Virus record (IMG/VR): IMGVR_UViG_3300045988_152944
Direction: 5' to 3' (one strand)
DNA from: a virus
DNA length: 64,000 nt
The notes below the pieces were generated by a model. The model did no database searches. It was not told the DNA's origin and saw only the letters and a program-made list of their open reading frames with translations. Of the stretch, positions 23,737-64,000 are shown in pieces. Every line of letters begins with the position of its first letter. Positions within the stretch are counted from its first letter, which is position 1. Position numbers and translations under genes: made by a program.

Positions 23737-26700
23737 TTAAGAATGTCTAGTGAGATTACGCGCGGCTTGAAGTTGTCGCACAAAGTCATCCATATCAAAC
23801 CCAGGTTGAGCAACCATATGAACATCCAGATGTTCAACATTAAACGATTCGTCGGTTCCGAACCCTGTTGTGTGACTGAACTTGCCGTTGATGTCCACAA
23901 GTTGTTTAATCAGATTAGGAGCAACCTCGCCCAGTTGCCATACGTTGCGCGTAAGGTCGGCGGGAACAACTCCAGACTTCGACGGAAGAGCCGTCAAAGT
24001 ACCTTGAGGAGTAATGATGCCTTCAAGACCATATTGAGGATCGTCATTGACCAGAGAGAGGCCACCGGCGGTAGATAGAGTGCCTGTTGCGTGTGAAGAG
24101 AAGTCGTCTTGTGGGAGTTCACCTTCGCCTGCATATGTTTCATATATTGTCCCGTTAGCATCAATATAGTACACTTTTTTACTTCCAGAATCATAAATAA
24201 AACGATTGCGTCCGCCCTTAATGATGTCTGCGGCTTTATACCCCAGATCTATTTCCTTAGTTTCTAGTGGATCGAACCACAGGTTTTTAGCAGGAGAATA
24301 AAACAAATAAGAAGGACTAGTCGAGGAATAATCTTTAATAAGCGAAGAGTCCACCTTTTTATTTGTGATCACCACTTTTGAGAATTTCTGAGTCGCATTG
24401 GGATTTGCCCACCACCCATACCAACCCTTGCTGGTGGATGAAATTGCACTATTTAACGAATTCCAACTAGAAATAGCCCCAACGCCGCCCGAACTTTCAT
24501 TACTCTTTTCAAACAATTCTAGATACTCTGCCTTATCTTTATTAGACAGGTATTTATTGTTAAAGGCATCTTCAAAAGCGCTGCGATTTGTGTTAAACTG
24601 TTCAATTTCCACATTGTCCAAATTATCATATAGAGCCTTCTTGTTTGACGCCGCATCCTTGGTTCCTTTTGACTGTAACCATCCACCACCTTTGGTGTTG
24701 ATGAAATCGTCATACGCCGTTTTTAAGGCTTTTTTGGCCGCAGCCTTACGATAGCTATCTTCACTCTTATTCCATTCCTCCAGCTCTTCTTTTTGTTGTG
24801 CCTTATCGGCCGACGAAAACAAGGAAAATTGCTTGGGATCGTTTAACCGTTTGGTCCACAATTCTATCAGTTCAGTTGTGTCTGTGATATTACCCGACCA
24901 AGACTGCATAAACTTTTGAGCCTCTTCAAAGGATTTGTCGTCGACAATTTTGGTCATCCAATCTCGTTGACCTTGTAATTCATCAATCAAAGTTTGTAGT
25001 TTGTTGATTTGTTTTTCATTATCCAGTTCTTCGAGTTCTTTTTGCGCATCAGCGATTGCCGCCGTATCTGCCTCATAAACCCAACCAACACCCTCTCTCC
25101 AAACCTTCTTTTTTTCAGTTTGAGCATTTTCGAGTTTAATTTTAGCTTCAATAAGTTTATTTTCGTATTCTCGTTGCTTATTAATTTGCTCTAGGGCCGA
25201 TTTTTGTTCCTCTAATGCTGTCTGCTCTCTTTCCAAACGTTTATCAATATTGGATTGTATCGCAGCCAATACAGTATTATTCCAGCTTTCTTGAACCACC
25301 TGTCTTATATTTTCGGCTCCATTCAAATACGCCTCAACATATGCGTTTTTGTATTTATTTAATATATCGCCATAGGCGGTGATTTGTTCGTCTGAAAAGT
25401 CTTCAGAACTTAACGCCTGATACAAATCGTCTAAAGATGTATTATCCGCGCCAAACCCCATTTTTTCCATCATATCAACAAAACCCTGGCTTTCGTTAGA
25501 TACCATAGCTTTAAAAATCTGGGAACCCGAGGCGTTTCCGCCAGACCAGTCCTCAAATAGAGAACGGGTTTTATTTGCATAATACTCTTTTGTTTTATTA
25601 GCAATACTAAAGACTCCGGCTTCTGTTAATGCACCCGCCTCGTTACCATTTGCTTGAATAATTTGATATAATGAATCCAGCGACACTTTGCCAGTGGAAG
25701 CCATTTCTGAAAAATAATTTATCAATTTTTCACTTTGTTCTTGCAAATCTGAAAATGTGGAATTCAACTCACCAATTGTTAACGAACCAAATTTATCCAC
25801 ACTTTGTTTCACATCGTCCACCGAACGCCCAAGGGCATTAGCAGCCTGATCTAAGAGTTCATTAACCACATTCGTATCCAATTTATAAGTGTTGTTAACA
25901 ATATCAGATAAAGTGAATTGCCCGCCAGCTAAAAGGGATTGTATCGAGGTGGAGGTGTCTCGTTTCATCATTAGTTGAATTAATCTTCTTATTTCCGTCG
26001 TTAACGACAGTCCCGCCTTATCCGCCACTTGTTGTTCAACCCAAGAGATACCCTTGCGTGCTAATTCCATAGAACCCATTGAGGAAACACCGCTGCGTAA
26101 ATACGCTTCTTGCATCGTATAATTCAAGAGTTTTTTTCGCTCGTCTGCGGTCAATTGTTGTCCTTCTTTGGATTGTTCATAGGCGGCCTTTTGCGCTCGA
26201 ATATTGGCGATTTGCAACGCTTGTGCTAACTGTGTCCGGCTTTCGCTGGATTTGTTTTCATCTGCTAAGTAATCATCAATGTTTCTATAAAGCTCGTCTA
26301 ATGAGGCAGCGCCAAATGTTTCGCGTAATTTAACCCCATCTTCTGAAGACAAGTAACTCTTAAAAGTATCCTCAAGAACTTTGTTGTCTACCGATGCTGC
26401 TTTTATAGCTTCCACATTTTCACGAATAGCCTTCACATCATCCGAAAGTAACTTATCTTGCTTGGAAACTTCAACAACGTTTTGAAGCGCGGTTTCTTGA
26501 GCCTTTAAAGTTTCTAAGAGTTTAGACGCCTCTGCCACTCTTTTTTTACGGTTGATTTCTTCTTTGTCAAGCGCATTGGCAATAGGCTCAGCGGCAAAGC
26601 TCCCAATCGTGGAACCTATCATTGCTCCAATTGGCCCCCCAAGTGCTCCTCCAATGGCTGTTAAACCACCCGCAAAAGCACCAGCAACTACTTTAGCCTC

Positions 26701-28075
26701 TGTAGATCCTTCTGTACCAACGCCAGTTGTTATACCACTAAACAATCCCCCGAGTGCGGCTCCAGGAATATTAGATGGGACGGATTTGAAATATTTTTTT
26801 ACTTTCCCATCTTCTCCCGTCGTTTCTCCAGGAACTCCACCTGTTTTTTGCTGATTAGTATCTTGAGCAACTGCTTTGGCGTGTTTTTGAGTTTCTTTTG
26901 TATCTCGCGAAGTAGCATTTGTGTTTTTGTTTTCCTCTTTGGTTCCTTGCGCTTCGGCGGCGGCCCCTTGTGACGCACTCTCGGCAACTTGGTCTAGCGC
27001 AGAAGCTGTACCAGTTGCAGATTGAGCCAATTTGTTATTGGCCGCTGCTACAGCCTCTTCGGTCTTTTTCTTTTGTATATCTTCTAGTTTGGACGCCTTC
27101 CAATCTTGCTGATGTTGTGCAAATCTTGTGGGTCCTAATCCACTCACAAAACTCTTCCCCTTACCCACAGAGAAAAACTCTTTCATCCAAAGAGGAACTT
27201 TAAAAGCGTTGTATTGAATCAGAGCTGTCCCGACAGCTCGAATGGAGGGAAGAAGTATTTTCATTAAAACAACGGACAAATCGGTAAACAATTTAACGAG
27301 TCCCGACTGCTCCAAAGTCATAGCGAGGTTTTCCCAAGCTGATTGCAGTCTATTTGATGCGCTTTGAATGGTTTCCATATATGCGGCATACTTGCTTTCG
27401 GCCGTACCTTGTGAATGCGCCGAAACCTCTTCTAGTTCTTCCGCACGATCCATATTTTCCATCAACACAAGGAATTGCTCGCGTTGACGAACACCGGCCA
27501 TAGCTGTAGCAATCGCGTTTTTCGACACGTTGTCAAGATTAATCCACCTATCACTCAGTTCGTCAAGAACGTCGCTAAAACTTCTAAATTCTGTATTGGT
27601 CGATCGAATACTGATACCAATTTTACCCAATACTTTTTCTATATCGTTTAAATTCTCGAGATCGGTATCAGACGATGCCTCGAGATTCATTTTTGTATAA
27701 GCGCCCGCTTTTACGTTGCCGTAACGGGACATAATTGTACGCAAGGCCATACCCACACTCGACGCGTCGCGTTGGGTGGTTTCAATGATTGTTGAAGCAT
27801 AGGCTATCGTCTCGTCTAACGACACGCCCGCCAGTTGCGCTGTCGTGGCAACGTTTTGCAAAGCAGCACCAATATCTGCGGCGGACACCGCTGCTTTCAT
27901 GTCAACTGCTGTCAGTTTCGAAACCACATTAACGGCATCAGACACCTCTAATTTAAACCCTTTAATCATTGAGGTTAAATACTCAGTTGCCTGACCGGCG
28001 TCAATCATACCCAGTTTACTTAAATAAGTTGAGGCGGTAATAAGCTCTCCAGCTTGTTGTGCCTCGTAACCTTGT
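23737..28075 (-). CDS. tape measure protein, exon 2 (C-terminal ~1445 aa)
   Basis: The frame stays open upstream of the called Met (…QGYEAQQAGELITASTYLSKLGMIDAGQATEYL…) and continues the TP901-type TMP core that starts at the end of the upstream ORF. Confidence 0.8.
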
Positions 28076-28405
28076 CTATAATTGTGTTACTTTTGAACTT
28101 CGTTACGTTTCAAAAGATTAAGAGAATTTTTATGTCTCAAAATTTTCTTTTATTTTCATAAAAGTTCAGACTATATCTTTGGTAAATAAAAGTTTCCTTT
28201 TATTCCCATCCCCCGCTTCCATTCACTTGAATGTACATAATAGTCTTTGAACCTTCCCCTATTCGGGGCTTGGCTGCTGATTATCCAATTTATATAATTT
28301 TTTAACCATCACACTTAAGCCTATTTCATCTTTATGTTGTGGTTTATATAACTTTAGGAACTTCCAGCAATTCAAGGGATTTATAGTGACCTAGACTTTT
28401 AGTTA
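28076..28405 (-). ncRNA. group I self-splicing intron, ORF-less (~330 nt), interrupting the tape-measure gene
   Basis: Minus strand carries P AATTGCTGGAAG (28372-28361), Q AATCAGCAGCC (28282-28272), R GTTCAAAGACTA (28252-28241) and S AAGATATAGTCT (28179-28168). P7 AGACTA/TAGTCT and P4 TGCTG/CAGCA pair. P1 GTGGCTTA/TAGGTCAC has a U.G at the 5' splice site. The intron ends in G, and the predicted splice restores the frame. Confidence 0.85.
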
Positions 28406-32109
<3,704 letters not shown>

Positions 32110-32670: not shown

Positions 32671-33324
32671 CTATTCGTCTGTGGTTTTTATTAAATTGGT
32701 TAACTCATCGTCTTTGAGTAGACCGTGTTCCGAAAGGGCTCCCGCAACCGCCGCCGTCATCGGATCATTTTGTTGAGTAATTGTTGCCAAATTCTTTACT
32801 GTTTCAGCGTCTAATCCCTGTATCGTTTTCTTCATAGCTTTCACCGTTTTTGCAAGTTTATCAGCGTCAAGTCCATCAAACATTTCAACCATTTTGAACA
32901 GATTTGAATAGTTTAACATTCTGTCAACCATTTGTTCTAAATATCTATAATCCCTTTCACAGAATTTTAAGATATCATCAACAATTCCGCTATCGTATAA
33001 AGCATCGATTGTGACCGGCGACATTGCAATTTCACCCATATCGTTGTTAATGTTGGAATAAGCCAAAAGACAGTATAAAATTTTTGCACACTCTATACGA
33101 ACAGTGGCCTCAACCGCATCATGCTCGTTATTTTTTAAACTCCAGGCTGTATATAATAGCGCTGCGGTTTTGTCACCCATTGTGAGTCTAGATTGCACAA
33201 GCAAATCTTGTTTCTGTTGTTGTAAAGCCTTCTCGGCCTCTTGATTTGTCTTACCTTCTTTATAAGCATCGCGACAATTAAACCAATTGATTAGTATATC
33301 TGATAATAAAACCTTATTTTCCAT
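32671..33324 (-). CDS. hypothetical all-helical protein (217 aa)
   Basis: Start moved to the internal ATG at 33324 (MENKVLLSD…), just after the integrase stop; the longer ORF would overlap the integrase gene. Confidence 0.5.
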   Translation of the reverse strand: MENKVLLSDILINWFNCRDAYKEGKTNQEAEKALQQQKQDLLVQSRLTMGDKTAALLYTAWSLKNNEHDAVEATVRIECAKILYCLLAYSNINNDMGEIAMSPVTIDALYDSGIVDDILKFCERDYRYLEQMVDRMLNYSNLFKMVEMFDGLDADKLAKTVKAMKKTIQGLDAETVKNLATITQQNDPMTAAVAGALSEHGLLKDDELTNLIKTTDE

Positions 33325-33325
33325 A

Positions 33326-34318
33326 TTACTCCTCTTCTTCTCCAACAAAAAATTGAGCCCAACGCTCTTCTGTCGGAATATCTGAATATCTCTTGACCAT
33401 TTCAAGAGAATCCCAAGATTGGATTTCAGCAATAGCCGAATCCGAAATACCTTCTTTTTGCATATTGGTTGTCCACAAATGTCTCATACAGTGGAAATAA
33501 AAAGGTACATTCATCAACGCACCAATCTTCTCAGCGTACGTATTCATTTGCGACACCGTTGCTTGAACAAATTTGCCATCACTGGTAGTAACAAACAGCC
33601 ATGGCGATTCTATTCCGCGTTCCTCGCGCTGTTTCATCCAAGCATCAAAATAGGGTTGAAATTTATTTTTTAATACATATTTAGGGATCTGTTTGCCGTT
33701 TGAGCCGCGTCCTTTTGTCTTAATAACACCCGTTTTATACATTTTACCATTAAGAATTAAATGTGCGTCATCAAAAAACTCAACCTTCATCCTGGTCAAT
33801 TCGGCCTTTCTCATTCCCGACGCAAAACTTAATGCGAGTGCGCAGGCTATTTGACACTGACCTTGTGTCAAGAGTTTGTCCAAACACTCTTCGACTTGTT
33901 CGTCAGTCAACACCGTTTTTTCACGTACTGGTTCTTTGTGCACCGGTTCAAGACTTTTGATCAAGTTCCTAAAGTTTGGATATAAATCTTCGTCCAAAAC
34001 CTCAATACAGTTCGACAGACTGCTAATGGCAGACTTTAAAGAAGCCACCCTATTGGAGCTCAAGCCGAGTCCGCGCAAATAACCAATGTATCTCACAAAA
34101 TCTCGCTTTTTGAGATCGATGAAAAACTTGTCTTCATTCTCGGTGTAATTCCAACAGAAGAAAACTTTCAACTGAGCCTCATACTGCTTGATGGTTTGCG
34201 CACTGCGGTCATTCGCTTTGCAATAGTCTATAAACTCTTTAACTAATTGTCTGTTTGGCTTACTGACTGAAGGCCAAGCTTGAGTGAGATTTGCGTTGTA
34301 AACTGTTGTTCGTCCCAT
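33326..34318 (-). CDS. tyrosine site-specific recombinase (phage integrase / Xer-like)
   Basis: N-terminal SAM-like core-binding region. Catalytic signature ASGMRKAEL (R), HCMRHLW (HxxR), SWDS, MVKRYSD (Tyr). Confidence 0.8.
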   Translation of the reverse strand: MGRTTVYNANLTQAWPSVSKPNRQLVKEFIDYCKANDRSAQTIKQYEAQLKVFFCWNYTENEDKFFIDLKKRDFVRYIGYLRGLGLSSNRVASLKSAISSLSNCIEVLDEDLYPNFRNLIKSLEPVHKEPVREKTVLTDEQVEECLDKLLTQGQCQIACALALSFASGMRKAELTRMKVEFFDDAHLILNGKMYKTGVIKTKGRGSNGKQIPKYVLKNKFQPYFDAWMKQREERGIESPWLFVTTSDGKFVQATVSQMNTYAEKIGALMNVPFYFHCMRHLWTTNMQKEGISDSAIAEIQSWDSLEMVKRYSDIPTEERWAQFFVGEEEE

Positions 34319-41511: not shown

Positions 41512-42777
41512 TTATGCTACGGTGAAATGCCACTTGTTCGCTTTGTCGCAAGCTGCAGCATTATCTTTGTAATATACGTTATACGACTTAGCCTCATAGC
41601 CATTCGCACCTTCTACATCCACAGTAATGTGGGTAAATGCGCTGAATGCTTCTGCGTTCAGTCCGTTAACGTCTTTGATTGAATTGATAGTTCTCGGTGC
41701 AGGGACAGCTATGATAACACGCATGTCACCAACAGCCTCTTGAGCATCGCCCGTATTGCCCGCTGAGATTGCTCCATTTCTCTTACCAGCCAAACCTCTG
41801 ATAATCGCACTCGTGGGCGTGCCTTCTTTAGATTTGACACCACCCCAGAAACTGTTTCTATAACCAGTAATAGCACTCGAAGCAGCGCTCTTTGTGCCAG
41901 CCGCAATTTTACCAGCTACGCCCTCAGTCGCACCAAGGTTGTTTTTAGGATCGGCACCGGCCGTGTGTGTAGCAACAACACTGACCTTATAACTGGTACT
42001 GTCACCAACTGTAAACTGAGCAAACGAACCCGTTTCTGTAGTAGCCGTATGCGAATCTGTATCGCTGACCTCATAGGTCGCTGTAATACCCGTGTCTGGA
42101 CCATATTGATAGCTACCTTTGTTAAAAGCCACTGAGTACGCAGGAGTGAATTCGCTACCAACCTCCTTTGCGCCGGCACCGGTTAAACTAATAGACACTG
42201 ACGGTTGGTTTACTGTAGGATTATTGTTAGCTTTTGCGAGCGCTCCTTTTAAGAATTCTTCTACAGACTTACCACTTGCGGGCAGCACAACCGAACCGGA
42301 TGCACCAGGAGCATAAATACCAAACGCTGTGGTTGCTGTGATATCATCTTTAAAATATACATTGCCTGCGTCGTAATTGCCATCCATGGCTTCCCAGTTG
42401 GTCTCGCCGCGTACATATGCAGTATACTGATATTTGCCACCAACCAACGCTTCCCTGATGATCGCAATGTCACCTTTAACAGGCTCTGCAATTTCAGCAA
42501 GCGCTGCCGCTTTGTCACCACCCAACGCGATGTCTTTCTGATAAACATCGGTAGTATGCAAATTTTTGGTAGCATCACCGATTGCTTTTTCGACGGCTGC
42601 CAAATCTACAAATGAAACGGTAATTTCGCTCCAAGTTTTGGTGCCATCGCCAACTTTGAAAATGTGTAAATCGGTATCATAACCAACTTCACCTTTCTTC
42701 AAAACAAGCTTGGAAGCAGCCCAATTGGTGCTGGTGTCATTACGTAAAATTAAAGTAATACGTATTTGTTTCTCCAT
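41512..42777 (-). CDS. fibre-like protein, paralog E (421 aa) with the shared N-terminal domain
   Basis: MEKQIRITLILRNDTSTNWAASKLVLKKGEVGYDTDLHIFKVGDGTKTWSEI. Confidence 0.75.
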   Translation of the reverse strand: MEKQIRITLILRNDTSTNWAASKLVLKKGEVGYDTDLHIFKVGDGTKTWSEITVSFVDLAAVEKAIGDATKNLHTTDVYQKDIALGGDKAAALAEIAEPVKGDIAIIREALVGGKYQYTAYVRGETNWEAMDGNYDAGNVYFKDDITATTAFGIYAPGASGSVVLPASGKSVEEFLKGALAKANNNPTVNQPSVSISLTGAGAKEVGSEFTPAYSVAFNKGSYQYGPDTGITATYEVSDTDSHTATTETGSFAQFTVGDSTSYKVSVVATHTAGADPKNNLGATEGVAGKIAAGTKSAASSAITGYRNSFWGGVKSKEGTPTSAIIRGLAGKRNGAISAGNTGDAQEAVGDMRVIIAVPAPRTINSIKDVNGLNAEAFSAFTHITVDVEGANGYEAKSYNVYYKDNAAACDKANKWHFTVA

Positions 42778-44054
42778 AAAATTTTCGGCAAAGGCCCCGC
42801 ATCCCCTTCAGGGGTGTGGGGGAATTGCCTCCTCCTTTCTATTAGTTTTGTTGAATTGTGTCTAATCCTTTTAAGGTTCTTATAACTTATTGAACCATTG
42901 TTTACCTTTTCTCCGTCTAAATTTCTGATATCTAAAAATCCTGATTTGCGTCTACCAAAAATCACATATTGTTTATTTTGATATTCTACCGTATCAAATA
43001 AGTCAAACCCAAAAACGTTGCCAATTAGTTGATTATTCTTTTTATATCCACCCTTTGAAAAATTATTTTTATGGATTTGTCTACTCTGCCTTCTAACACA
43101 CTTTTGATAAATATAATAATCTAAAGACTTCGCCTTTGGATTACCACTTATACACCGAGCATCTATGTAGTGTGCTTTCGGCAGATTATTTTCAATACGA
43201 GTGTTTTTAGTTATATAGCCATATGTTTCGTGGACATTTGAATATAACGCACATAATCTGTCAAATAGCGTCTTACACATAATCCCCATAAACGCAGCAT
43301 CTCGATAACTTTTACCACGTTTGAACTTTAATTCAACTTCGCCCTTGTGATAAGCTTTATGACAAGTTTCGCACAAGGTAATTAAATTATTCGGTGCATT
43401 GCCACCTGCTTTACGACTTTCAATATGATGTACATTTAATACATTATCTTTTGATTTACCGTGGCAACATTGGCATTCGTGGTGATCGCGGAATAATACA
43501 TAGGCTCTCACATTCCAGAAACCTAATTGCTCGCCCTGTTGATATTCTTTTCCCGATATTTCGGGATTGTTTATCTTCTGGATATCGAATTGAGCGGTTT
43601 CGACAATAAGTTTAGTTATCGGTAAAATCGCATACAAGCGTTTTATAACTTGAATATGCGAATTTATCTTTTGTTCAACACTTGGAGCAAGCCATCCTTT
43701 GTGTTTTGAATAAACACGATTGTTAAATCTTGCAGGGCGATATCTCAACCGGTTTCTTCTCGTTCTTCTTGCTTCTCTACGAGATGATAGTTTATTTACA
43801 ATATCATTACGCAATTCGACATCAGCTTCATATAGCACTTGTTTGTCCGTTGTGGCAGAAACACCAATATGCTTACTTCCGACATCAATTCCAAGATTCA
43901 CTTCTTGTGTTTGATTTTCACAATCGAATAATAACTGAATTGTAAACGGTTCGTATTTTACTATTTTTGCTTTATTTTGTTTTAGCAATTTTCTTGCTTT
44001 TGCTTCTTTGCAAGGCATTAATGGTTTGCCTTGTTTGTTTAATACATATACCAT
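42750..44054 (-). CDS. iscB: IscB RNA-guided nuclease (OMEGA family, Cas9 ancestor-like), 434 aa
   Basis: PLMP motif (GKPLMPC), RuvC-I GIDVGSKHIG, Arg-rich bridge helix RREARRTRRNRLRYRPARF, RuvC-II IVETAQFD, HNH HHIESRKAGGNAPNNLITLCETCH, RuvC-III HYIDARC. Confidence 0.9.
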   Translation of the reverse strand: MVYVLNKQGKPLMPCKEAKARKLLKQNKAKIVKYEPFTIQLLFDCENQTQEVNLGIDVGSKHIGVSATTDKQVLYEADVELRNDIVNKLSSRREARRTRRNRLRYRPARFNNRVYSKHKGWLAPSVEQKINSHIQVIKRLYAILPITKLIVETAQFDIQKINNPEISGKEYQQGEQLGFWNVRAYVLFRDHHECQCCHGKSKDNVLNVHHIESRKAGGNAPNNLITLCETCHKAYHKGEVELKFKRGKSYRDAAFMGIMCKTLFDRLCALYSNVHETYGYITKNTRIENNLPKAHYIDARCISGNPKAKSLDYYIYQKCVRRQSRQIHKNNFSKGGYKKNNQLIGNVFGFDLFDTVEYQNKQYVIFGRRKSGFLDIRNLDGEKVNNGSISYKNLKRIRHNSTKLIERRRQFPHTPEGDAGPLPKILWRNKYVLL

Positions 44055-44320
44055 TGCTTTTATAGCCTCCTATATGTTAGAGTGGTTACTCCACGACAAT
44101 GTTATTCAAAGGTTTTACGTATGCAACACTGTTCCTACCCATCAGAACTGTTTAATCACATACCGCAGAGCGTAAGACTGGAGAGTACATCCTACAGTGC
44201 CTATATATTCTTTGATAACGTAGTGCTCGAAGCACTGAGTCTGATCAACTAGTGAGCTTGAAGCCCACGCCTATTTATGGGCTGGGTAGTTGACAAAAAC
44301 TCCTTTTGAAAATAAATTCG
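44055..44320 (-). ncRNA. putative IscB omega-RNA (guide plus scaffold)
   Basis: A 266-nt ORF-free gap immediately 5' of iscB, where IscB omega-RNAs are encoded. Stems include GTGGGCT/AGCTCAC (44252-44268) and AGTGCT/AGCACT (44222-44236). Confidence 0.65.
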
Positions 44321-44791
44321 TCACTCACTCAAGGCGTCGCCGCCATTGAAAATGAAATGCTCGTAATTTTGTCCCATGCTTTTATAAGATTTTGTGTCCT
44401 TATCCCAGCAATAGGTTGCTTGTTCTGATAATACAAAGTACACACCACCAACATCGCCCACAGCGGGTAGTTGTTCGCGTGTACTCACTTGAACAGCCCC
44501 TGCGGTAACGCCCGAAGCAGAAATAACATTGTTTTCGTCAATTGTAATACCAGAACCAGCGGTTAATTTTTGTTGATACTTTTGTAGCTCCTCGGTTGAA
44601 TCCAAGGCTATCCAATTAGAACCGTCTGAACGATATAGACCGTTGTGTTCTAATTTCTCCGTTGTGGCACCAAGATGATGATAGATTTTATTATCGCTTG
44701 CGTCCTTCGGAGAAAAAGAACTCAGATCTTTGTTCTCAATTGGAGTGTTAAGCAGCTGATTATAATCAGCAATCATAATTCTTTGAATCAT
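44321..44791 (-). CDS. hypothetical fibre-module protein (156 aa)
   Basis: ORF 3 nt downstream of the previous gene; no diagnostic motif. Confidence 0.55.
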   Translation of the reverse strand: MIQRIMIADYNQLLNTPIENKDLSSFSPKDASDNKIYHHLGATTEKLEHNGLYRSDGSNWIALDSTEELQKYQQKLTAGSGITIDENNVISASGVTAGAVQVSTREQLPAVGDVGGVYFVLSEQATYCWDKDTKSYKSMGQNYEHFIFNGGDALSE

Positions 44792-44794
44792 CTT

Positions 44795-45115
44795 TTAACC
44801 CTCTGTAATTATATAGTAAGCATTTTGAACATATTTTTCCGTGGTCGGTCCCACATACTTAACAAATTTACCAAAAAACTCACTTACGTTCAGCTTGTTC
44901 ATTTCTTCTTCGGTTTTGGCTATAATGGGGTTTTCGATCGAACCAAGTTCTCCAGTACCATTAATTACCTTCCCATACGAATCGTAAGCTGAATAACCCT
45001 TTAAAACCTTGGCCGCATCTGCCTGATTGCCAAGAGGGGTTAATACATAATCTCCTGTTGGACTATAATTATCATTAGTTTGGATAATTAACGTCCCCTC
45101 GTATTTTTGTCCCAT
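44795..45115 (-). CDS. small protein, paralog 2 of the MGQKYEGTLIIQTNDNYSPTG family (106 aa)
   Basis: Start at the internal ATG 45115 (GGAGGAG RBS); the first ~22 aa are nearly identical to the gene at 45176-45394. Confidence 0.6.
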   Translation of the reverse strand: MGQKYEGTLIIQTNDNYSPTGDYVLTPLGNQADAAKVLKGYSAYDSYGKVINGTGELGSIENPIIAKTEEEMNKLNVSEFFGKFVKYVGPTTEKYVQNAYYIITEG

Positions 45116-45175
45116 ACTTTCTCCTCCTGCCAAATCACCCATAACCAATAGTGTGGATGCTTTTGCGATAGTTGT

Positions 45176-45394
45176 TTACGCCGCAGGTTCAGGTTCAGGT
45201 TCAGGTTCAGGATCTTTCTCCGGTGCGACATAAGAACCATTCAATACCACGCCCTGTGCTCCATAAGCTTTTTTGCCTTTCAGGATGTCTTCTTCGGATG
45301 CCAGATCAGGTATTGACTCCAAACGATATTCGCCCGTAGGACTATAATTATCGTTGGTTTGAATAATCAGTGTGCCTTCATATTTTTGTCCCAT
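45176..45394 (-). CDS. small protein, paralog 1 (72 aa) with C-terminal (PE)n tail
   Basis: MGQKYEGTLIIQTNDNYSPTGEY…EKDPEPEPEPEPAA. Confidence 0.55.
   Translation of the reverse strand: MGQKYEGTLIIQTNDNYSPTGEYRLESIPDLASEEDILKGKKAYGAQGVVLNGSYVAPEKDPEPEPEPEPAA
45184..45213 (-). repeat. in-frame hexanucleotide repeat (CAGGTT)x4 plus a variant unit, encoding (PE)n
   Basis: Direct reading of caggttcaggttcaggttcaggttcaggat. Confidence 0.9.
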
Positions 45395-63111: not shown

Positions 63112-64000
63112 TTAGGCTAATTGTTTAAGCCCTTCATTAAGAATATTTATCGCCGCATTAACATCTCTATCATGATGAGTGTGACAAACGGGGCAATCCC
63201 ATTCTCTGACTTTTAGGTCTTTTGTCTCAGTGTTCTTATATCCACAAACGCTACAAGTCTGCGAACTCGGGAAGAATTTGTCAACTTTAATAACCATTCT
63301 TCCATACCAACGTGCTTTATACTCCAACTCTCTTACAAATTCTGACCAAGAAACATCATTGATTGCTTGCGCGAGTTTGTGATTTTTAACCATATTTTTT
63401 ATTTGCAAATCTTCAAGACAAATCACATCATTTTCTCGAATGATAACTGTTGAGAGTTTTTGTAGAAAATCTTTACGTTGATTTGAAATTTTCTCATGCA
63501 ATCTCGCGACTTTTATTCTTGCTTTGTTACGGTTAGAACCATCTTTTGATTTTCGAGATAATTCTTTTTGTAACTTTGCAAGTTTATTTAACGAGTTTTT
63601 GAGATATTTCGGATTATTGACAACCTCACCATCGCTCGTGATACAAAACTCTTTAAGACCCAGGTCTATGCCGACCACATTGTTTGTAATCGGCAATGGT
63701 TGTATATCCACATCCACACAGCACAACGAAACGTAGTATTTTCCGCTGGGCTCTTGTGAAACCGTCGCGTTTACTATTCTACCTTGTGGTACCAACTTGT
63801 TTTTCGTTTTTACCAATCCAAGTTTTGGAAGTTGAATGTAACCGCCAAGATATTTTATGGTGCCATTCCTATATTTAGAGTTGTAAGAATATTTATGAGT
63901 TTTCTTACTTTTGAAATTTGGAAACCCAGCGTGTTCTTTAAAGAACTTTTTATAAGCATTGTCTAAATCTTTGAGAGAAGATTGAAGAGCAGTGGAATCA
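63112..64000 (-). CDS. tnpB: TnpB RNA-guided nuclease (IS200/IS605 OrfB), partial; N-terminus lies beyond the right edge
   Basis: The frame is open to position 64000 (…[22 protein letters not shown]…). Ruv[23 protein letters not shown], zinc finger CSVCG…[18 protein letters not shown]. Confidence 0.9.

Follow-up and report, generated by a model that had tools for sequence, protein, structure and literature searches.

We describe an IscB nuclease gene and its guide RNA inserted in the genome of a virus, IMG/VR record IMGVR_UViG_3300045988_152944, of which 64,000 nucleotides (nt) were analysed; this whole stretch is called the window below, and positions refer to it. The two form one element on the minus strand, directly ahead of a tail-fibre-like gene. 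We consider, with a probability of roughly 0.8, that it is a non-autonomous IscB/omega-RNA insertion of the IS200/IS605 family in a tailed phage of the human gut with a genome of ~100-140 kb, kept or spread through RNA-guided cleavage of sites that lack it. The parts of the element and its immediate flanks are listed here, with TAM standing for target-adjacent motif.

42778..44294, minus strand: whole inserted element, 1,517 base pairs (bp), with omega-RNA scaffold, iscB and TAM-proximal end (from the empty-site comparison)
44295..44310, minus strand: guide-encoding flank TTCAAAAGGAGTTTTT, ~16 nt of phage DNA directly 5' of the scaffold, formerly the fibre ribosome-binding site and spacer
44082..44294, minus strand: omega-RNA scaffold, Rfam HEARO RF02033 (covariance-model match)
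44055..44081, minus strand: 3' tail of the RNA region with the iscB ribosome-binding site AGGAGG at 44066..44071 (read directly; conserved in a 23-copy alignment)
42750..44054, minus strand: iscB open reading frame (ORF), 434 amino acids (aa) as it stands (ORF list; Pfam, NCBIfam and PDB matches)
42787..42829, folding best as plus strand: subterminal hairpin of the TAM-proximal transposon end, the 'left end' in the TnpA convention (DNA fold, covariation)
42772..42777, minus strand: TAM-like flank ATGGAG (CTCCAT on the plus strand), in which the ATG at 42775..42777 is the fibre start codon (from the junction)

Element boundaries and empty sites

The element was delimited by comparison with 17 related phage contigs in which the site is empty, six from IMG/VR (L001-L006) and 11 from metagenomes. 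The six IMG/VR contigs, whose fibre protein is 90-95% identical, align to both flanks of the window, and by BLAST and junction comparison they lack everything from ~44299 to ~42780. The metagenome scan yielded the 11 further empty alleles and one occupied allele, all from gut-metagenome assemblies, which brings the fibre site to 17 empty and four occupied alleles. With a slash at the insertion point and the element in parentheses, the empty junction reads ...AAAAAGGAGAGTTT/ATGGAGAAACAA and the window ...AAAAGGAGTTTTT(GTCAAC...GCCGAAAATTTT)ATGGAGAAACAA. In short form this is ...AAGGAGAGTTT/ATGGAG against ...AAGGAGTTTTT(element)ATGGAG, without target duplication, and the natural empty alleles can also be written ...GGAGAGTTT/ATGGAG. 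The insertion point falls precisely in the interval that separates the AAGGAG ribosome-binding site of the fibre gene from its ATG. A first-pass annotation, made by a model from the letters of the window, had suggested that an IscB/omega-RNA pair lies here and that related phages would tell whether the RNA segment is ordinary conserved intergenic DNA. It is not, because RNA and IscB are jointly missing from the relatives and leave a clean empty site. These relatives were found through proteins in IMG/VR; megablast of a 6-kb region against 50,697 GenBank phages gave no match.

Among sister copies of the element, conservation begins at GTCAAC and stops at ...GAAAATTTT. The 2-nt flank difference at the scaffold side (TT in the occupied and AG in the empty allele) raised the question of a misplaced boundary, which was rejected: the termini GTCAAC...AAAATTTT are kept in the sister copies, and conservation does not extend to the 5 nt ahead of GTCAAC. 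The TAM-proximal end contains the hairpin at 42787..42829, which folds as DNA on the plus strand at -13.6 kcal/mol (z = -2.6) and shows compensatory changes at eight of its 13 pairs in 11 copies. The opposite end of the element is the structured 5' region of the omega-RNA. As the first-pass annotation had stated, no TnpA accompanies the pair, and 1,517 bp leave no room for one; the element is therefore non-autonomous, which is compatible with IS200/IS605 membership. About 98.5% of iscB loci are likewise without TnpA (PMC10055086). Overall, the element has the tested features of a non-autonomous IS200/IS605 member: no target duplication, a TAM-adjacent position, end hairpins and signs of mobility.

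IscB protein and omega-RNA

Sequence comparison confirms that 42750..44054 (minus strand) encodes a full IscB, for which RNA-guided, TAM-dependent cleavage is predicted. The NCBIfam equivalog model NF040563 (guided_IscB, 'RNA-guided endonuclease IscB') covers aa 2-302 with 374 bits against a cutoff of 175. In Pfam, aa 2-174 match RRXRR (4.5e-67), which represents the N-terminal and RuvC part of IscB, and aa 194-237 match HNH; PHROG 119 ('HNH endonuclease') matches at 2e-63. The top matches among solved structures are the IscB chains 7UTN and 7XHT, with an E value of 3.6e-45 when the sequence was used by itself and 1.5e-50 when a profile was used (1e-45 to 1e-51 overall). The active sites were checked by sequence alignment and not in a predicted model: aligned to 7XHT, D57, E152, H210, H295 and D298 fall on D61, E193, H247, H340 and D343 of OgeuIscB, and none of the five varies among 31 aligned homologues. 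The IscB hallmarks listed in the first-pass annotation thus stand, in the order given there. These are PLMP at aa 11-14 (GKPLMPC, aa 9-15, aligning with GKPLMPT of OgeuIscB), RuvC-I at D57, the arginine-rich bridge helix at aa 90-113 (read directly as SSRREARRTRRNRLRYRPARFNNR), RuvC-II at E152, HNH at H209/H210, and RuvC-III at H295/D298. HNH is placed between RuvC-II and RuvC-III, and the 7XHT alignment points to H210 as its catalytic histidine.

Toward the C-terminus, ~75 residues (aa ~333-408) are conserved in 120 homologues. Most homologues have 426 aa and end in ...LPKIL*, and flank-dependent tails start with W. Not all of the 434-aa ORF belongs to the element: codons 1-425 lie inside it, and the final nine codons with the stop (42750..42777) lie within the fibre gene.

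The 266 nt upstream of iscB (44055..44320) had been taken as a whole for the omega-RNA region. The segment is ORF-free and holds a co-oriented HEARO match that ends 27 nt ahead of the iscB ATG, but its first 26 nt (44295..44320) are phage flank outside the element, supplying the guide. The covariance-model check proposed at the time gave a strong match to RF02033, 133.4 bits against a gathering score of 83 (E ~1e-28), over model positions 1-211 of 211. In the RNAalifold consensus of the window RNA and 22 copies from other phage contigs (23 in all), 30 of 47 pairs carry compensatory double changes, and the structure is therefore under selection in phages. HEARO is the family subsequently recognised as the omega-RNA of IscB (PMC10055086, PMC13565253), and RF02033 does not include the downstream omega-RNA structure (Meers et al., PMC10055086).

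Since scaffold position 1 coincides with the element boundary, the guide TTCAAAAGGAGTTTTT is phage flank, in agreement with the location of IscB guides beyond the transposon boundary (Meers et al., PMC10055086). A search of the window for this guide, even with three mismatches allowed, returned its own junction as the sole match, and there, in the occupied genome, the match adjoins the scaffold rather than a TAM. Omega-RNAs of IscB rely on outside transcription (PMC10055086).

Sister copies, movement and mechanism

IscB relatives number in the thousands; the best 120 are 77-100% identical, and many lie on contigs of 70-215 kb. IMG/VR searches gave ~25 IscB loci, with HEARO above threshold in all eight tested, and three contigs whose fibre site is empty bear a sister copy elsewhere (176671, 178591 and 3300030343_000052). 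Across the ~25 copies the scaffold start GTCAAC/ATCAAC is fixed and the sequence upstream of it is unrelated from copy to copy. The other terminus reads CAATTCC-hairpin-TTTGCCGAAAATTTT and is followed by ATG in every parseable copy. At ~17 distinct sites the flank is ATGAA in 11, ATGGA in two, ATGAC in two, ATGAG in one and ATGGG in one. The ends were read from printed sequences together with an alignment of 11 ends, and apart from the sites of the window and L016 the boundaries were set at the point where conservation ends. On the opposite strand, TTCAT adjoins the terminus in nine of ten sister copies, with GTCAT in L023 and TCCAT in the window. At each locus examined, a co-oriented downstream gene starts with the flanking ATG, and ATGAA-like start codons are the reverse complement of TTCAT. 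For the IscB of ISGst5, experiments gave TTCAT as the TAM, and the same motif flanks the transposon (PMC10055086). The TAM predicted for this family is ATGRA, the complement of TTCAT.

Several sister loci merit separate description. At ~33322..33330 (minus strand) the window itself holds an empty allele, ...GAGGAGTAAT/ATGGAAAAT (TAAT/ATGGAAAAT), of the IscB/omega-RNA copy found in 3300001528_000686 (L016/L041); this junction parts two co-oriented genes and lies directly 5' of an ATGGA start codon. In L010/L024 (IMGVR_UViG_3300045988_178591) an IscB copy without the hairpin lies between diverged direct repeats of ~41 nt, at ~2715-2755 and 4217-4257 in L010 coordinates. Each repeat includes a ribosome-binding site, the ATG and the first seven codons of a downstream zinc-ribbon gene (MKCPRCG / MNCPKCG), and L014/L028 show a weaker version of it. 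Single-crossover integration of a circular intermediate is a possible origin of the repeats, as is deletion between paralogues. L018 (CAVKBM010000005.1), a 62-kb contig in a 'Bacteroidaceae bacterium' bin, carries an IscB 86% identical to that of the window, with the canonical end and an ATGAAC flank. In these phages, the strong ribosome-binding sites (AAGGAG) and a tail tube of the YomU type suggest a Bacillota host, and the L018 contig may be a mis-binned phage.

Regarding selection, pairwise ratios of nonsynonymous to synonymous substitution rates (dN/dS) for iscB between phage copies are 0.05-0.21, which points to strong purifying selection on the nuclease. Element and backbone disagree in their identities. 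L050 also carries the insertion at this site; its element is 99.2-99.4% identical to that of the window, whereas the upstream gene is 95.8%, the fibre gene 93.3% and the next gene 88.0% identical. Compared with L049, also occupied there, iscB is 86.5% and the fibre gene 91.9% identical. Flanks of empty-site phages are 96-98% and ~92% identical to the window, as close as those of L050. This discordance argues for lateral movement or replacement rather than purely vertical descent.

Two of the occupied alleles show further changes. Of the nine iscB differences between the window and L050, eight lie in the first 285 nt (window 43770..44028), the next 1 kb (42778..43769) being identical, and two are non-synonymous (E51D, V58A); the mosaic suggests recombination within the element. 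In L049 (ENA ERZ1674265 NODE_24025) a 30-nt deletion at ~165-185 took the stop of the upstream gene, the intergenic region and the original guide, and the 3' end of that upstream gene now takes the place of the 'guide'.

For the persistence of the element, the mechanism published for IscB elements has the best support; it comprises an outside transcript, a guide from the flank, a cut at the element-free joint and recombination (PMC10055086). Read-through from the upstream late gene would yield an omega-RNA whose ~16-nt guide matches the unoccupied site, and IscB with this RNA would cut the empty site beside ATGRA, which could lie in a sister genome from which TnpA has excised the element or in a relative infecting the same cell. 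Repair by recombination with the occupied copy would then restore or spread the element (homing), while first arrival at a new TTCAT site would need TnpA in trans. The first-pass annotation had left open whether this is a homing-type selfish element or a nuclease that the phage retains against hosts or competitors. The former agrees with a guide that equals the flank, with the many sister sites and with the polymorphism of the insertion; nothing found supports the latter, which is taken up below.

The insertion also bears on translation of the two flanking genes.

41512..42777, minus strand: downstream tail-fibre-like gene, 421 aa, with Mtd_N domain (Pfam Mtd_N, tail-fibre PHROGs)
44321..44791, minus strand: upstream co-oriented gene, 156 aa, without assignable function (ORF list)

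The element had been placed between two fibre-module genes, which is right for the downstream gene; the upstream one carries no such assignment. The element parts the fibre gene from its native ribosome-binding site, and the fibre ORF is intact in both occupied and empty relatives. In the usual sister arrangement the TGA stop of iscB is formed with the start of the next gene (TTATGA), giving an ATGA overlap of the kind typical of translational coupling. In shorter iscB variants without the hairpin, GGAGG then stands at ribosome-binding-site distance from the next ATG. Because the second fibre codon is GAG, the junction in the window gives TGG and not TGA, and iscB stays open for another nine codons (WRNKYVLL*), as far as 42750. 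The identical arrangement, with an intact fibre ORF, recurs in two other samples (L049 and L050), and the read-through arrangement is therefore viable. We infer that coupling to iscB keeps the fibre gene expressed, and in the proposed mechanism it would sustain that expression after insertion.

A number of observations weigh against the element being an RNA-guided system at work today. At the junction, GGAGTTTTT in the window corresponds to GGAGA(G/A/C)TTT in all 17 empty alleles, each of which mismatches the guide at both positions 4-5 nt from the TAM; the six counted IMG/VR empty alleles mismatch it at 4-5 of 16 positions. A search of IMG/VR for an empty site matching the guide exactly gave none, and the sampled phages may therefore offer the present guide no live target. 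The mismatches could have arisen by simple divergence or because constraint was relaxed once the element had inserted, or the alleles that survive could be those resistant to cutting. The flank in the window is ATGGAG and the family consensus ATGAA, and coupling is weaker here than in the sister copies because the stop of iscB comes 25 nt after the ATG of the fibre gene. Between the upstream 156-aa gene and the scaffold, promoter signals did not exceed chance, which fits read-through without proving it. No HUH...Y motif of TnpA was found in six frames of the window by a weak regular-expression test. The C-terminal TAM-interacting domain is not confirmed by sequence: it has no match to solved IscB C-termini, and the last 117 aa alone gave only a chance match against the PDB. 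An AlphaFold2 model from the shallow 31-sequence alignment, with a mean predicted local distance difference test (pLDDT) of 40, lends that domain no support; IscB folds around its RNA.

Several of these points would also be expected of a stranded passenger, structurally intact and currently inert, that has neither transposase nor cleavable target and is inherited vertically with little harm. The lack of TnpA in the window, the TAM-proximal mismatches of every sampled empty allele, the missing exact site in IMG/VR and the guide destroyed by deletion in L049 all fit this explanation, as do several sister copies with frameshifts or a lost end hairpin. We nevertheless regard it as unlikely, since IscB is under strong purifying selection with invariant catalytic residues, the RNA shows compensatory changes, the end hairpin is intact, and the discordance between element and flanks implies recent movement.

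Phages carry RNA-guided nucleases, and a domesticated weapon, in which IscB cuts the host chromosome or competing phages (superinfection exclusion) with a guide selected accordingly, might draw on the generic, ribosome-binding-site-like core of the guide, which beside a start-codon TAM could resemble many gene starts. However, the guide is the exact native flank, differing per insertion site and always local, and has no second match in the window with three mismatches allowed. The element is moreover dispensable, being absent here from most relatives, and has transposon-like ends, so this explanation is very improbable. Less probable still is a nuclease-dead RNA-guided regulator that tunes fibre expression, as in TldR-type domesticated TnpB. 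The guide does span the region of the fibre ribosome-binding site, but the RuvC and HNH domains retain every catalytic residue, each of them invariant, and the guide match in the occupied genome adjoins the scaffold and has no TAM. Both forms of domestication were rejected on these grounds, namely a guide equal to the flank, dispensability and intact catalytic residues.

Within the preferred reading of a mobile IscB/omega-RNA insertion, a bolder proposal is that the IscB elements of this clade act as RNA-guided homing drives between co-infecting phages. Their TAM (ATGAA/ATGGA) would be the start codon and their guide the ribosome-binding region, the displacement of which would be compensated by coupling to iscB, and surviving empty alleles with TAM-proximal mismatches would be drive-resistant. 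We hold this as a tentative idea, somewhat short of an even chance. If true, it would provide natural evidence in viruses for 'non-restorative' OMEGA homing, which a 2026 review treats as theoretical in phages (PMC13565253).

Other features of the window and known systems

Three further features of the window deserve mention. A group I intron without an ORF of its own (Rfam RF00028, 85.9 bits, gathering score 50) lies at 28147..28439 (minus strand) and parts the ORFs 28399..32109 and 23737..28008, the downstream one having PF10145, a domain of phage minor-tail/tape-measure proteins. The two ORFs can be fused in frame at many candidate splice sites to give ~2,640-2,680 aa, so they are probably one giant intron-split tape-measure gene. 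A TnpB gene at 63112..63816 (minus strand), with similarity extending to 64000, matches Pfam OrfB_IS605 (5.6e-30) and the Cas12f1-like TNB domain (1.4e-26). It represents a second RNA-guided nuclease element of OMEGA type in this phage and is 82% identical to the TnpB region beside L012; a TnpB-like ORF also occurs near L010. Finally, the small adjacent ORFs 44795..45148 and 45176..45394 (both minus strand) share a near-identical N-terminus, GQKYEGTLIIQTNDNYSPTG, and the second ends in a (PE)n repeat. Related loci have the same internal 74-nt repeat as this pair, which are probably tandem paralogues encoding a small virion or fibre-associated protein.

The biology of IscB and its omega-RNA is well characterised, and many IscB orthologues are known. 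The closest counterpart of the window element is ISGst5 of Geobacillus stearothermophilus (Meers et al. 2023, PMC10055086). In both, the scaffold forms one transposon end, the guide lies outside the boundary, read-through comes from a co-oriented upstream gene, and there is usually no tnpA of the element's own. The TAM stands beside the opposite end, TTCAT in ISGst5 and CTCCAT in the window. The dead mutant of the ISGst5 IscB is D58A/H209A/H210A and the window protein has D57, H209 and H210, which makes the numbering of catalytic residues nearly the same. In contrast to ISGst5, the window element resides on a lytic-type gut phage and not on a bacterial chromosome, its copies stand at start codons, iscB of this type appears to be translationally coupled to the downstream gene, and the cognate TnpA was not found. 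With OgeuIscB-omega-RNA (7UTN, 7XHT) the window shares domain order, aligned catalytic residues and a HEARO-type guide RNA. Its IscB is shorter (~409-426 aa native against 496), with ~30 residues fewer after the bridge helix. The C-terminal TAM-interacting region is not alignable to that of OgeuIscB, and the predicted TAM is ATGRA against NWRRNA.

IscB with HEARO RNA on viral or prophage contigs is also reported in the part of Goltsman et al. 2022 (PMC9755519) drawn on here, according to which more than 16% of HEARO-encoding fragments are viral. That part gives the viral origin, and the window and its relatives add empty-site alleles, boundaries and the start-codon TAM. Our literature searches returned no paper describing a start-codon TAM with translational hand-over, or such movement among gut phages. 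The kind of element is thus already known, viruses included, and the novelty is modest, lying in the start-codon TAM with its hand-over and in the signs of movement at the population level. To our knowledge, few published cases combine occupied alleles, empty alleles and many sister insertions. Boundaries, guide and predicted TAM can be read directly from the window and its relatives, which offer a testable system for RNA-guided homing between phages. They also suggest a simple rule by which gene-dense phage genomes tolerate insertions, that is, landing on start codons in gene orientation and handing translation onward. As an editing scaffold the pair has the merit of being compact, but a 5-nt TAM is restrictive.

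T4-like phages have free-standing homing endonuclease genes, SegF, SegG and Mob, which resemble the window element in being selfish nuclease genes between conserved phage genes and polymorphic among relatives. Both would be expected to spread by cutting the nuclease-less allele in co-infection. They differ in that SegF, SegG and Mob find their targets by protein alone, whereas the window element would use an RNA guide and a TAM, has transposon ends, and would tell self from non-self through the insertion itself. By this analogy, the element may be regarded as homing-endonuclease-like in function and as standing outside those families.

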